Source of the DNA: a virus
Taxonomy: Duplodnaviria; Heunggongvirae; Uroviricota; Caudoviricetes
Length of the DNA stretch: 64,000 nt
Strand: one strand, 5' to 3'
Virus record (IMG/VR): IMGVR_UViG_2718218304_000001
Location: 32,001 to 96,000 of that record
The notes beneath the pieces are model-generated. The model worked only from the letters and a program-made list of their open reading frames with translations. It was not told the origin of the DNA and did no database searches. Each line of letters opens with the position of its first letter. Within the stretch, counting starts at the first letter, position 1. This document shows positions 18,394 to 57,203 of the stretch, one piece after another. The translations under genes were made by a program, and so were the position numbers.

Positions 18394-18984
18394 CTACTTG
18401 TTATAAACAAAACCAATATCTTTCTTGTGAGGCATATCTGCTGCTGAAAAAGCTGCGATCTTCGCGAGTCGATCACATATTTCATTTTCACGATGCCCGG
18501 CGTGACCTTTAACCCACTTCCAGCGAACATTATGTCGACTTGCGGCCTCATCCAGACGCTTCCACAGATCAACATTCTTTACCGGTTTTTTGTCAGAAGT
18601 CATCCATCCATTGCGTTTCCACCATTTCATCCACTGTGTCATGCCGTTTTTCAGATACTGGCTATCAGAGTACAAAATAACGTTGCATGGATATTTCAAA
18701 CGCTCCAGCCCGATAAGTGCCCCCATCATCTCCATGCGGTTATTGGTGGTGCTATGAAAACCATCTGAGAACTCGCGTTCCTCACCACCATACTGGAGAA
18801 CTATACCGTAACCGCCCGGGCCACCCGGATTTTTAAGGCAAGAGCCATCACTGAAGATTTTCACGGTTTTAAGCTGGGGATTGAACTCTACGACAGGCGT
18901 TGTGGAATTGGTGCGGGGAGAATTTTTGTTTTTGTCATTTTTGCGAGTTTTTGCTTGCGATCGGGCTGGTGTCTTCGTCGTCAT
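18394..18984 (-). CDS. ribonuclease HI
   Basis: VKIFSDGSC...NNRMEMMGA...DSQYL...[15 protein letters not shown] closely parallels E. coli RnhA; start refined to the ATG at 18984 with GGAG upstream. Confidence 0.85.
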
Positions 18985-19570
18985 ATAAACTCCTGAATCA
19001 AGCGCCGCGCCGATTTTTTTTTCCTCGCGCGTGCGCACACGCGTGCGTGTTAATAATTATTAAAATAAACAAATTACTTCCCAGAACAGGTTTTTATAAA
19101 CCTGAACTGAACGAACGAAGTGAGTGAAGTTCACCTCGAACGAAGTGAGAGGTTGTCTTTTCAGGTAATACTCTCCCAGGGAGGTGAGTACAAAATTTCC
19201 TCACCAACCTGGTCGTTTCATAACCTGAAAAGTTATGACCTAAGTCTACTGCCAGCTTAGGCTTGGGAAGTTATGGATGACAGCACCCCAGAACCGAGAT
19301 CTTCCCACACTTTATGAAGGGGAGTACTGGATTCAACCTCTCGAAACACCCCAGACTCGACAATCATAAAGTGACCCTTGTCTCTGCTCACTTTGGTTCC
19401 CCCTTCCCCAACCCCTAAACGGTGCCGGTTCTACGCTGGTAGTGAGCTTTTTTAAACCTGACGCCAGTGACGCTTACCCCCACCCATCAGGTCGAGCCTC
19501 CAGTCTACGACTGGAAACTATCAGATCTTAGCACTTACAATTCACTTTATGAATAGTTTGTACTTATCTA

Positions 19571-19825
19571 TCATTTCGATTGATTATTTTTTCGACCATG
19601 TAGTTGAACATTCAAGGCAAACACCTCGTTGATCAACTCACCTAAAAGCTGTTCAACAAGTTCGCGATGCTCCCCAAGATGCAAGCACTTAATTGCCCAT
19701 TCGTACAAGTTGAAAGCCTGCTCACGATCTTTCATCATTTCACGAGCCTGGGCCAGAAAATCGCTCTCTACGAGCGCAACGACATTAGTCGGGTATGACA
19801 TGTTGGTTTCCTTAAAGTGGTTCAT
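19571..19825 (-). CDS. hypothetical small protein
   Basis: ORF track only. Confidence 0.3.
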   Translation of the reverse strand: MNHFKETNMSYPTNVVALVESDFLAQAREMMKDREQAFNLYEWAIKCLHLGEHRELVEQLLGELINEVFALNVQLHGRKNNQSK

Positions 19826-19987
19826 AAAATCGATTTTAAAGCGTCTGGGAAGGGGTTCTAGTGGATTCTGTAGTGGTGTTCAGGTCTGGGAGTCTCTGAT
19901 ATAAAACAGCCTGCTTCCGTATATTAATAATTAATATGTAGTTATTTATATATACAGAAGCAGGCTAATTACAGACGCCAGAACAAA

Positions 19988-20581
19988 CTAAGCAGCCTTC
20001 TTTGATTGTCTTTTTTTCCTGATCACATTCGCAGGATCATACCCTCCCAGACTTTTCATGACGTCCAAAGGGATCTTGCTTATAGAGTGCCCAGCGTCCT
20101 GACAGAATCCTCGAAAAACAACGAGCATACTGCCACCTGGGTTGATGTTTACTTCTACCTGACCCAGATTTACGTCAGGCTCGACAAACGCTACGCGGCC
20201 ACCAGACAGAATAATCGTCTCATTCGCACACTCTGTTGCACGCTCATACCACTTTGTATCTAGGGATTGAGGAATTAGCATCACTGTTGTAACTCCGCGA
20301 GCCTGCTCACGTATAGCCGCATCAATCCAGGGGTAGATTTTGGAGTAGGGTGGATTGAGGAAGGCAATTGTACCTGGCTGTCCCCATTCAGATTTCAAAG
20401 CATCACGCTCAACGCCTATGAAATTAGGCAGCTTTGCATTGTCCTTGTTGCAGGCAACGTCAACATCAAATGTCACTCCAAGATAACGTTGAATGGCAGA
20501 AAACAGCCAGTCAGGTGTTCTCCAGAGGTCACGAAGAGAGTTGTCACGCTTTCGCTGTTTGATTTTTTCGGCTGCAATCAT
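19988..20581 (-). CDS. phage-type DNA N6-adenine methyltransferase (Dam-like)
   Basis: FLNPPYS catalytic motif in a ~190-aa protein, typical of small phage Dam methyltransferases. Confidence 0.7.
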   Translation of the reverse strand: MIAAEKIKQRKRDNSLRDLWRTPDWLFSAIQRYLGVTFDVDVACNKDNAKLPNFIGVERDALKSEWGQPGTIAFLNPPYSKIYPWIDAAIREQARGVTTVMLIPQSLDTKWYERATECANETIILSGGRVAFVEPDVNLGQVEVNINPGGSMLVVFRGFCQDAGHSISKIPLDVMKSLGGYDPANVIRKKRQSKKAA

Positions 20582-45503: not shown

Positions 45504-45832
45504 TGATGCCCGCCAATTGGCGGGCATCTGTTCTCTGTAAAGGTGTCTGGCATCGTCTGGTTCGTTAACGTTTACTAAACCAATGGTGACAAAAATTAGT
45601 TATCTTTGAAAAATAAAGGTTGCATGAAAAGAAGGGGTATGCGTTAATAGCATCGTTGGTTTGCAAGACAGACCTTATGTAAGCAGTTTTAGTAAAGCAG
45701 TCTCAGTTCAGTGTTATCTTCTGATTTCCCTTCTTCGTGAGTCTCCTCCTTAAGTGCCTAAGTAAGTCCCAATCTATACAGATCAAATTCTCGCCGCACT
45801 ATGTGGCTCACAAAATTAAGAAGGTAATATCT

Positions 45833-46048
45833 ATGTCTAATAAAATGACTGGTTTAGTAAAATGGTTTAACTCTGATAAAGGCTTTGGCTTTATTTCTCC
45901 TGCTGATGGCAGTAAAGATGTTTTTGTACATTTTTCGGCAATTCAGAGTAATAATTTCCGCACTTTGGAAGAAGGCCAGCAGGTCGAATTCTCTATCGAG
46001 AATGGGGCTAAAGGCCCAGCAGCAGCAAATGTCGTTGCTCTAAGCTGA
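45833..46048 (+). CDS. cold-shock protein, CspA family
   Basis: [23 protein letters not shown]...VFVHFSAIQ; start refined from the track (45737) to the ATG at 45833, preceded by AAGG and a long 5' leader. Confidence 0.85.
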
Positions 46049-46326
46049 TTCAACGCTGATGATCCTCATTTCTACAATAACGAAGACGGTGTAAGCCTGA
46101 GTGGATAGATTTGTAGGATTGTACAAGTTGAATAAATTAGCATGGTAAGGCCATGCTAATTAAATCGACACAACGGCCAGTTTATTCCATAAAAGTGAAT
46201 TGCCCATTGTGGCGAAATGCGGGGTTGCCGCATGAATAGTCAAAGGCAGAAGCTAACTGCCGGCATGGCAAAACAAAGTGCGTAAGAGGAGTGACTTCCT
46301 CAACAAGCGCCATAATTCTTTATAAA

Positions 46327-56549: not shown

Positions 56550-56636
56550 TGGCGGAGAGTAATGGAATCGAACCATCATCGCTTGCGCAATGGGACGGTT
56601 TTCAAGACCGCTTGAGCACCATGCTCCCTACTCTCC
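56550..56636 (-). tRNA. tRNA-Ser (anticodon UGA), long variable arm
   Basis: Hand-folded: acceptor GGAGAGT/ACTCTCC, anticodon loop CUUGAAA, T-loop TTCGATT, encoded CCA; D-arm is atypical. Confidence 0.5.
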
Positions 56637-56956
56637 AGCTATTGTGATGGTCGGTGCTGAACTCCGACACAGGGTTGTAGCAAGCCCCGCAAAGCGCGCA
56701 CTACTGTAGTTGCGGCACATCAGCCTGTGCATTCATCACAACGGTAAGATCACTACCTTTCGACCAGTCATTGTGCACATGAACGACGATTAACCGTAAT
56801 GATCTTATCGTTGTGTTGTGAAGCCAGATGCTTATCTTCTGGTTGCTTCAAAGAGCTGCACTTCCTCACAACGGTAAGAGCACTGGTCTGACTCTATCGA
56901 TTTACGGGCTTGTGGGTCAGTATCGCCGATTCGCCCAATGCTCTTACCTGTTGTGT

Positions 56957-57032
56957 TGGTGCCGGTTAACGGGATCGAACCGCTGACATCCTGCTTACAA
57001 GGCAGACGCTCTACCAACTGAGCTAAACCGGC
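56957..57032 (-). tRNA. tRNA-Thr (anticodon UGU)
   Basis: Hand-folded: acceptor GCCGGTT/AACCGGC, D-arm GCTCAGTTGGTAGAGC, anticodon loop CUUGUAA, T-loop TTCGATC, CCA. Confidence 0.7.
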
Positions 57033-57036
57033 AATT

Positions 57037-57123
57037 TGGTGGGGAGTGATGGAGTCGAACCACCCGAGTCGCAATGACAGTAGATTTACAGTCTACCCCG
57101 CTGCCCCTACGGACTAACTCCCC
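57037..57123 (-). tRNA. tRNA-Tyr (anticodon GUA), long variable arm
   Basis: Hand-folded: acceptor GGGGAGT/ACTCCCC, anticodon loop CUGUAAA, T-loop TTCGACT, CCA. Confidence 0.6.
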
Positions 57124-57128
57124 TAAAT

Positions 57129-57203
57129 TGGCGATGGTGGGTGGATTCGAACCACCGACCAGTTGGTTAACAGCCAACTGCTCTACCGCTGAGCTACACC
57201 ATC
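57129..57203 (-). tRNA. tRNA-Asn (anticodon GUU)
   Basis: Hand-folded: acceptor GATGGTG/CACCATC, D-arm GCTCAGCGGTAGAGC, anticodon loop CUGUUAA, T-loop TTCGAAT, CCA. Confidence 0.7.

Follow-up and report, generated by a model that had tools for sequence, protein, structure and literature searches.

A probable large structured RNA gene in the SSU5-like phage-plasmids of Enterobacteriaceae

We analyzed a stretch of 64,000 nucleotides of viral DNA (hereafter the window) that belongs to an SSU5-like phage-plasmid, with 98% identity to Escherichia phage Cyrano and 88% to Salmonella phage SSU5. Phage Cyrano is the pLF82 phage-plasmid. The segment under study is a gap between genes, at 19100-19545, which an E. 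coli plasmid matches at 100% identity. The genes around it (methyltransferase, 76-aa ORF, gap, RNase HI) all lie on the minus strand, with the following features:

18394..18984, minus strand: RNase HI gene (Pfam RNase_H, 2e-45), downstream of the RNA described below; context only
19014..19063, no strand assigned: conserved block downstream of and outside the RNA, with an AT palindrome, a GC-rich palindrome and a T9/A9 tract
19026-19050, no strand assigned: GC-rich alternating palindrome, occurring once in the window
19050-19063, no strand assigned: AT-rich palindrome TTAATAATTATTAA, with one further loose copy at 19924
19571..19801, minus strand: 76-aa ORF (phrog_5343), upstream of the RNA and syntenic with it; context only
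19988..20581, minus strand: Dam-like adenine methyltransferase gene, a gene neighbour

The product of the 76-aa ORF matches no Pfam family and, among PHROGs, an uncharacterised one; its AlphaFold model (pLDDT 79) predicts a three-helix protein, for which fold searches retrieved no PDB match and no resemblance to Rop. The ORF occurs in 726 plasmids of PLSDB and falls into 29 protein clusters overall. Elsewhere the element carries T4-like replication and recombination genes (UvsW, UvsY, gp32-like, a RecA-type recombinase, primase and Pol III alpha); ~17 kb from the locus lies a RepA replicon of IncFIB type. The recombinase is annotated RecA in Cyrano.

The initial annotation had described the gap as ORF-free, GC-rich, endowed with direct and inverted repeats and minus-strand G-runs and preceded by a promoter-type palindrome, and had proposed that it is a structured non-coding RNA or a DNA-level signal. 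The lack of a credible ORF between the RNase HI gene and the 76-aa ORF is real: ORFs inside the gap span only 25-46 aa, none keeps its position or frame across subtypes, and the alignment of relatives places 1-2 nt indels within them. A tRNA/tmRNA scan returned nothing in the gap. The 13-bp direct repeat CGAACGAAGTGAG is likewise present at 19112 and 19137, as are the inverted repeats (including GGTGAG/CTCACC and CTCCC/GGGAG), which correspond to helices of a conserved RNA fold. The richness in GC was overstated, with 48.7% in the gap versus 45.9% in the whole window, and the palindromes are not at the upstream end; instead, they sit 3' of the minus-strand element, by the start of the RNase H gene. 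On this wrong side a palindrome cannot drive the element, and neither one acts as a recurrent promoter motif, since the GC-rich palindrome is unique and the AT-rich one has a single loose extra copy. The block that holds them (19014..19063) may be a control region of the variable downstream genes; its motif GCGCGAG(G/A)(G/A)AAAA is kept in distant relatives, also where betT stands for rnhA.

A coding function would require that one of the mini-ORFs is a small protein gene, and the obvious candidate is the 44-aa ORF at 19391..19257 on the minus strand, which exists and is annotated in Cyrano as CYRAN_81, a gene listed among the expressed "morons" (PMC9928086). This reading is scarcely credible, for the 44-aa ORF is missing or frame-shifted in 6 of 11 subtypes (Klebsiella, L075, L086, L082, L078 and L080), conservation is even over the three codon positions and the substitutions in helices are compensatory. 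In fact, CYRAN_81, annotated as a protein, is the sole prior trace of the RNA.

The map that we propose for this RNA, read on the minus strand, is as follows:

19525..19553, minus strand: predicted sigma-70 promoter, with a -35-like TTCATA at 19553-19548, a 17-nt spacer and an extended -10, TGc-TAAGAT, at 19533-19525
19062..19519, minus strand: predicted transcript of ~455 nt, both ends estimated, +/- about 10 nt
19498..19516, minus strand: P1, 5'-terminal hairpin of 8 bp, from the fold; variable sequence, structure kept
19456..19492, minus strand: P2, long hairpin with a GGGUGGGGG run; five compensatory pairs
19387..19446, minus strand: P3 domain, a CUCACU/AGUGAG helix around strand ACCAGCGUAGAA, hairpin P4 and strand GGGGAAGGGGGAACCAAAG
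19427-19409, minus strand: P4 hairpin, inside the P3 domain; 2 compensatory pairs, with 3 more in P3 itself
19409-19391, minus strand: purine-rich strand GGGGAAGGGGGAACCAAAG within the P3 domain
19236..19376, minus strand: central domain, H8-H13, from fold and covariation; includes H9 and H10, the latter with a GAGG loop
19373-19364/19317-19308, minus strand: H8; 7 of 10 pairs compensatory
19307-19301/19270-19264, minus strand: H11; 3 of 7 pairs compensatory
19288-19284/19279-19275, minus strand: H12
19262-19253/19248-19238, minus strand: H13; 5 of 10 pairs compensatory
19157..19232, minus strand: H14/H15 domain, a long stem (19232-19220/19169-19157) with the cap CCAGG..GGUGAG-loop-CUCACC..CCUGG (19212-19176)
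19112..19149, minus strand: two 13-bp direct repeats, in RNA sense CUCACUUCGUUCG twice, which flank and form hairpin H17
19138-19131/19123-19116, minus strand: H17 hairpin, made by the direct repeats
19111-19080, minus strand: 3' hairpin UUCAG..CAGGUUU-loop-AAACCUG..CUGGG; two compensatory pairs
19079-19061, minus strand: U-rich tail after the 3' hairpin, with it the probable 3' end or terminator

Several lines of evidence argue for this fold. The minus strand has a minimum free energy of -164.4 kcal/mol (z = -4.7), and the opposite strand, at -138.2, is 26 kcal/mol worse; many invariant G-U pairs also fit the minus strand, and for both reasons we assign the RNA to it. RNAalifold, applied to 51 distinct close copies, yielded 134 pairs with 99.8% of cells paired and 10 compensatory pairs, versus 1-3 in slid controls. 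Distant copies were obtained via homologues of the small 76-aa ORF, namely L086 (90% identity to the window element), L082 (82%), L080 (69%) and six loci at 68% (L078, L079, L081, L191, L178 and L240), and the structure found for the close set was then projected onto 16 aligned sequences, these copies included, down to 68% identity. Here 93.1% of cells are paired (36-48% when slid). Compensatory pairs number 34; sliding the structure left 4-8, and shuffling gave a mean of 20.9, none of 500 shuffles attaining the observed count. Two sequences were kept out of the covariation counts, namely the bisulfite-like C-to-T assembly L083 and the chromosomal copy L087, which is degenerate. The L078 type is represented by about 40 plasmid records. 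Thus, ~15 helices are maintained by compensatory mutations. Support is best for P2, P3, P4, H8, H11, H12, H13 and H15, and poor in distant copies for the 3' third of the fold, made up of H14, H16, H17 and the long-range H6/H7. Two pseudoknots are suspected, one between the GAGG loop (19340-19337) and CCUC within 19153-19147, the other between CCAG (19439-19436) and CUGG in the loop of H13.

Individual elements differ in how they are conserved. P1 occurs as at least five different sequences, every one a hairpin, with 3 of 6 aligned pairs compensatory, and in P2 the ACCUGAU/GUCAGGU pairing becomes GUCUGGU/ACCAGAC, AUCUGAU/AUCAGAU or GCAGAU/GUCUGC in other subtypes. The H14/H15 domain was recovered both as an inverted repeat and in the fold: H15 is paired in 97% of cells, with 2 compensatory pairs; H14 shows no variation among close relatives but only 89% pairing in distant ones. 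The single strands of the P3 domain are invariant or nearly so, even at 68% identity, and the invariant junction and loop strands of the RNA are UACCAGCG, GGGGAAGGGGGAACCAAAG, GAUCUCGGUUCUGGGG, CUGGCAGUAGA and AACCUCUCACUUCGUUCGAGG. Two short motifs, UUCUGGG and CGUUCG, each recur in the RNA and are both conserved. The direct repeat, on the other hand, is not a defining feature, since a 68%-identical subtype has H17 and the second repeat copy deleted, with only two CGUUCG left.

The same data bear on the idea that the segment works as DNA, whether by forming a G-quadruplex, as a site of recombination or packaging, or as an array bound by proteins. G-runs and repeats are certainly there, and the element borders a region of gene-cassette exchange. 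The minus-strand G-runs, GGGTGGGGG at 19485-19477 and GGGGTTGGGGAAGGGGG at 19415-19399, are present as first described; the capability for G-quadruplex formation attributed to them does not hold, for a quadruplex calls for at least four conserved tracts of at least three G within a short span, the longer run (19415-19399) makes three tracts, and in relatives the runs are altered to GGGTGGAGG, CGGGGAGAGGGAGAA and GGGUGGAGG. In the RNA, the G-tracts belong either to helices or to single-stranded segments that are conserved. Given, in addition, that the compensatory changes and G-U pairs are strand-specific, with pairing that works on one strand only, that the region has no repeated binding-site arrays and that the segment is transcribed as a discrete unit, a DNA-level signal is very improbable and largely refuted by covariation. 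We conclude that the gap is very probably a structured non-coding RNA gene, the other possibility raised at the outset; covariation, G-U pairs that fit one strand, the conserved promoter and the published expression data all speak strongly for it.

Conservation is pronounced. The block is 90-100% conserved in 685 PLSDB plasmids from Klebsiella, Escherichia, Enterobacter, Salmonella, Citrobacter, Cronobacter and others, and the gap is also conserved in 12 phage records; it is present in 230 of 5426 complete E. coli genomes (~4%), where RefSeq annotates nothing. Column identity reaches 0.92-0.999 in the conserved block (19500-19101) versus 0.66-0.87 in the flanks. In comparisons of the window with SSU5 or with the elements of Citrobacter or Klebsiella, identity is 92-98% for the RNA core and, at the DNA level, 74-76% for the methyltransferase gene and 75-78% for the small ORF; the RNA thus evolves several times slower than the adjoining protein genes. 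Among close relatives, recombinational spread of one allele could explain part of this extreme conservation. Neither of the refuting observations named in the initial annotation was made: the region is conserved as well as transcribed, and relatives have no homologous protein-coding gene at the position.

The RNA is found as one copy per element. A covariance model built on the central domain (R1) matched the window exactly once; the remainder of the Cyrano genome, the Moellerella relative and the L084-type locus gave no match. The Moellerella plasmid shows the same synteny and lacks the RNA, which is therefore not indispensable to every relative. When 185,579 species genomes were scanned by motif, two matches proved true, both in Kluyvera. 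The other matches, including a chromosomal coding gene in Escherichia, were chance. Overall, the module of RNA and 76-aa ORF is limited to a narrow clade of Enterobacteriaceae. In L084 and L085 the slot holds a different, well-folded sequence (z = -6.9), which is unrelated to the RNA by nhmmer and covariance model and absent from the plasmid, phage and IMG/VR collections.

How, then, is the RNA produced? Host RNA polymerase is predicted to start near 19519, from the conserved extended -10. Across 11 aligned sequences, some from relatives at 68% identity, the TA..AT and the T of the TG are invariant and the G nearly so. The -10 has been seen as TAAGAT, TAAAAT, TAGAAT, TAACAT and TAATAT; a simple promoter scan missed the site because its score, 8 of 12, is under the cut-off. 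A discrete RNA would be stabilised by the 5' hairpin and by the 3' hairpin with its U-tail. As an intrinsic terminator this 3' structure is not canonical, given that the U-run begins 6 nt past the stem, and the terminator scan made no call.

Transcription of the region is borne out by published RNA-seq of the Cyrano lysogen. CYRAN_81 lies inside the element, and in the LF82 lysogen it is listed as a "moron" 12-fold above background (PMC9928086). After overnight growth in LB, the fpkm values are 9.5 for CYRAN_80, 117 for CYRAN_81 and 8.4 for CYRAN_82, the RNase H gene (PMC9928086, Table 1 and S1 Table), and at 6 h in macrophages the log2 fpkm is 10.3 for CYRAN_81 and about 5 for CYRAN_80 and CYRAN_82; the profiles of that study are strand-resolved, and it does not state whether the gene counts are strand-specific (PMC9928086). 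From these values the element segment stands 12-40 times above both neighbours, is highest in macrophages and shows a ~14-fold drop of signal from the RNA into the next gene. The published peak, Cyrano 78657-78791, falls within the conserved block. Thus, the RNA has its own, non-coding transcription unit, with a conserved promoter, an RNA-seq signal above the flanks, no conserved ORF and ends that are predicted.

A strong signal followed by a drop might also be that of a terminated leader, the RNA then acting in cis on the downstream genes as attenuator, riboswitch or antiterminator. Its orientation is shared with the downstream gene, and a stop signal and a conserved motif stand between the RNA and the next start codon. 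The downstream gene is, however, interchangeable: RNase HI, directly downstream in the window and many relatives, is swapped in others for betT, for unknown proteins or, as in L086, for a Gabija-like pair on the opposite strand, and the RNA is kept at loci where rnhA is swapped out. At the distant loci, none of the downstream genes examined is an RNase H. Moreover, when the RNA rises 11-fold, RNase H expression increases no more than Cyrano genes do in general, and an RNA of 455 nt and ~15 helices, matching no riboswitch family, is far above the size of known leaders. A cis-acting leader is accordingly quite improbable.

The variable neighbourhood also weighs on a role in replication. In such a model, the RNA would be a primer or R-loop origin RNA like ColE1 RNA II or T4 oriF/oriG, a G-rich transcript that stays hybridised to its template, is trimmed by RNase H, whether from the adjacent gene or from the host, and primes the leading strand from its 3' end, serving lytic or extra plasmid replication. 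The appeal of this model lies in the RNase HI gene next to the RNA in the window and many relatives, the T4-like replication and recombination set of the element, the G-rich RNA strand with its purine run, and the AT-rich stretch and conserved GC-rich/polypurine motif 3' of the RNA; ColE1 RNA II is also folded and, at ~550 nt, long. But the adjacency to RNase H is lost in several subtypes, replaced by betT, unknown proteins or Gabija-like genes, and the G-runs are not conserved; our searches found no antisense promoter or RNA I-like partner and no DnaA boxes nearby. Expression is strong in the uninduced lysogen, the typed replicon is RepA/IncFIB, ~17 kb off, and the RNA-seq signal is that of a discrete RNA, mostly ending ahead of the putative origin. 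We therefore regard a primer function, although the main rival, as improbable.

We favour a different explanation, which we hold to be probable on the whole: the gap is an autonomous minus-strand gene for a ~455-nt structured RNA of Enterobacteriaceae SSU5-like phage-plasmids, active in the lysogenic phase. That it acts in trans, in a manner dependent on its fold or on protein, is more tentative, and we put it at slightly under an even chance; it is suggested by the size of the RNA, its invariant junction and loop strands, the lack of long antisense targets and its independence from the downstream gene. While the element persists as a plasmid, in lysogeny, the three-dimensional fold of the RNA would let it work as a scaffold for proteins, as a decoy or in some other way that depends on the fold, and not as a long antisense. 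It may thereby help to maintain the element or contribute to its immunity, defence or anti-defence.

A toxin-antitoxin, abortive-infection, defence or anti-defence system, with the RNA as an antitoxin-like or decoy partner of the 76-aa ORF or of a downstream cargo gene, is a specific sub-case of action in trans. The RNA is expressed in lysogeny alongside the toxin-antitoxin and partition genes of the element, and the succession of promoter, RNA, leaky stop and downstream gene, with a ratio of ~14:1, recalls the type III toxI-toxN arrangement. The locus is at the upstream edge of a cargo hotspot, where relatives carry Gabija-like, Tad2-like and type I restriction-modification genes, and an SSU5-like plasmid reduces plasmid uptake and phage burst in Klebsiella (PMC8969562). 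Against this, the RNA has no ToxI-type tandem array, just two 13-nt repeats, 25 nt apart, that form one hairpin and are lost in relatives (they are absent in the L078 type). Nor does it contain a small hydrophobic ORF that is conserved, a feature of type I systems of the hok/sok kind; the candidates, when translated, are not hydrophobic. The downstream partner is not conserved, and the 76-aa protein, devoid of recognisable fold or family, occurs without the RNA in Moellerella and L084. Overall, we consider a system of this sort unlikely.

Returning to the autonomous RNA that we favour, one may go further and see in it the founding member of a new large structured RNA class, a core, lysogeny-expressed component of a clinically widespread phage-plasmid lineage that would work through its tertiary fold as an RNP, a decoy or possibly a catalyst, for immunity, defence or maintenance, in a slot that is itself an exchangeable "RNA cassette"; the latter notion comes from L084 and L085, which carry an unrelated and equally well-folded RNA in its place. 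We regard this extension as conceivable, on balance rather doubtful, and would say as much of the proposal that the function of the RNA is of a new type.

The RNA may nonetheless matter beyond its own locus. SSU5-like phage-plasmids are common in clinical Enterobacteriaceae, where they are carriers of resistance genes and influence virulence and the uptake of DNA, and the RNA is found in ~4% of complete E. coli genomes and ~700 sequenced plasmids. Conserved above any neighbouring protein gene, on in the dormant state and induced in macrophages, it is an obvious candidate regulator. Published annotation is corrected as well, since CYRAN_81 is not a protein "moron", and annotators gain a family ready for a covariance model. 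The short list of large structured orphans is extended by one more bacterial RNA of at least 400 nt with strong covariation.

To which known RNAs does it compare? Its helices covary, and no Rfam 15 family matches it. With all 4227 covariance models of that release, which include GOLLD, ROOL, OLE, raiA, C4, 6S, CsrB, RNase P, tmRNA, RNAI and riboswitches, the whole window gave at the gathering threshold only cspA and three tRNA matches, elsewhere; at E <= 10, the region 18900-19700 gave four chance matches of 15-21 bits, versus thresholds of 45-56, and the loci of five relatives gave nothing relevant. Likewise, no earlier description was found in Rfam, RefSeq annotation or the literature searchable by sequence strings or keywords.

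Small regulatory RNAs offer partial likenesses. Non-coding RNAs transcribed from their own promoter in a lysogenic plasmid-prophage are also seen in the c4 RNA of P1/P7, the CI RNA of P4 and the CA RNA of N15, which measure ~70-200 nt and act on a nearby operon through short stretches of antisense pairing. The RNA described here is, in contrast, ~455 nt long, finds no complementary target of at least 12 nt in the rest of the 64-kb window and is not matched by the Rfam C4 model. Short seed pairing with host mRNAs is possible; of the features of Hfq-type sRNAs, a 3' hairpin and a U-rich tail are present in non-canonical form. ColE1 RNA II resembles it as a long folded transcript with a G-rich segment, and an RNase HI gene and a gene for a small helical protein adjoin the RNA here. 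However, neither the RNase H linkage nor the G-run is conserved and the replicon is RepA/IncFIB; as for an RNA I-like antisense, RNAI did not match, and the only promoter-like site on the plus strand (19512-19541) points away from the RNA. Protein-sequestering RNAs such as 6S and CsrB/RsmZ are abundant, stable and regulated by condition, and work through shape or repeated motifs, which may be compared with the recurring UUCUGGG and CGUUCG; the RNA differs from them in matching neither family and in having no evident array of GGA loops or 6S-like mimic of an open promoter.

In biology the likeness is with the immunity RNAs of P1, P4 and N15, in kind with the large orphan RNAs. GOLLD, ROOL, OLE and raiA run, like the present RNA, to several hundred nucleotides, with numerous helices that covary and junction strands that do not vary, and orphans of the GOLLD/ROOL type are similarly found on prophages and mobile elements, lead no fixed gene and have a function that cannot be deduced from context. 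The differences are that no sequence or structure match to them exists in Rfam and that the RNA is much narrower in distribution, being limited to Enterobacteriaceae. GOLLD reportedly increases in lytic growth, whereas the RNA described here is expressed in lysogeny. The family tests place it in none of the orphan or immunity RNA groups, and it is a new family within a known kind, the large structured orphan RNAs.

The segment immediately 3' of the predicted structured RNA is a cargo hotspot, as seen when the loci of five relatives (L005, L007, L078, L086, and L241) are compared with that of the window. RNase HI occupies this position in the window; the relatives carry betT, unknown proteins of 200-222 aa accompanied by a Tad2-like gene, or a Gabija-like OLD-TOPRIM plus a UvrD helicase, and in Moellerella a type I restriction enzyme is found.

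Palindromic features near the RNA and the small ORF
19014-19063: T9/A9 tract and two palindromes, one GC-rich and one AT
19907-19966: long near-perfect hairpin, arms of ~17 bp (19907-19924 and 19950-19966)

The first lies 3' of the RNA. Its GC-rich palindrome, CGCGCGTGCGCACACGCGTGCGTGT, is of alternating purine-pyrimidine composition and occurs once in the window; the AT palindrome reads TTAATAATTATTAA. The GCGCGAG(G/A)(G/A)AAAA motif of this block is retained in 68%-identical relatives, as well as where betT stands in place of rnhA, and the block may act as a control region for the variable downstream genes. The hairpin has an AT-rich loop including TTAATAATTAAT and is flanked by the methyltransferase gene on one side and the small ORF on the other.

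The slot of the RNA itself can hold another sequence. In two Logan assemblies (SRR28417476 and SRR28417470; L084:2755-3330 and L085), the small ORF is present (70% identical) and RNase H genes follow downstream, as in the window; the ~560 nt between them are unrelated to the window RNA, no similarity to it being detected by nhmmer or by the covariance model of its central domain, and gave no match among PLSDB, INPHARED, and IMG/VR. The fold of this sequence is very strong (z = -6.85), and it may represent a second, distinct structured RNA occupying the same slot.

In the L083 copy of the locus (Logan SRR8137545) almost all C are read as T, the pattern of a bisulfite-converted library; this copy is an assembly artefact and was left out of the counts. 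The patchy, degenerate copy in an E. coli chromosome (L087; CP125919.1, 403964-409140; 74% identity), whose central domain is no longer matched by the covariance model, is probably the decaying remnant of an integrated element.

In the Escherichia phage Cyrano, the 44-aa ORF CYRAN_81 (OV696614.1, 78657-78791) corresponds to window 19257-19391, within the RNA gene. Published as a "hypothetical protein" and a "moron", CYRAN_81 is a spurious ORF, and the expression published under its name belongs to the RNA.

The window also contains RNA features of known type.

Known RNA features of the window
56550-57203, minus strand: cluster of four tRNAs, Ser (tga), Thr (tgt), Tyr (gta), and Asn (gtt)
45655-46073, plus strand: Rfam match to the cspA thermoregulator

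All four tRNAs are called by ARAGORN, three of them being also scored by Rfam. The thermoregulator, a strong Rfam match (185.7 bits), identifies a gene for a cold-shock protein, which the phage-plasmid carries together with the regulatory 5' UTR.
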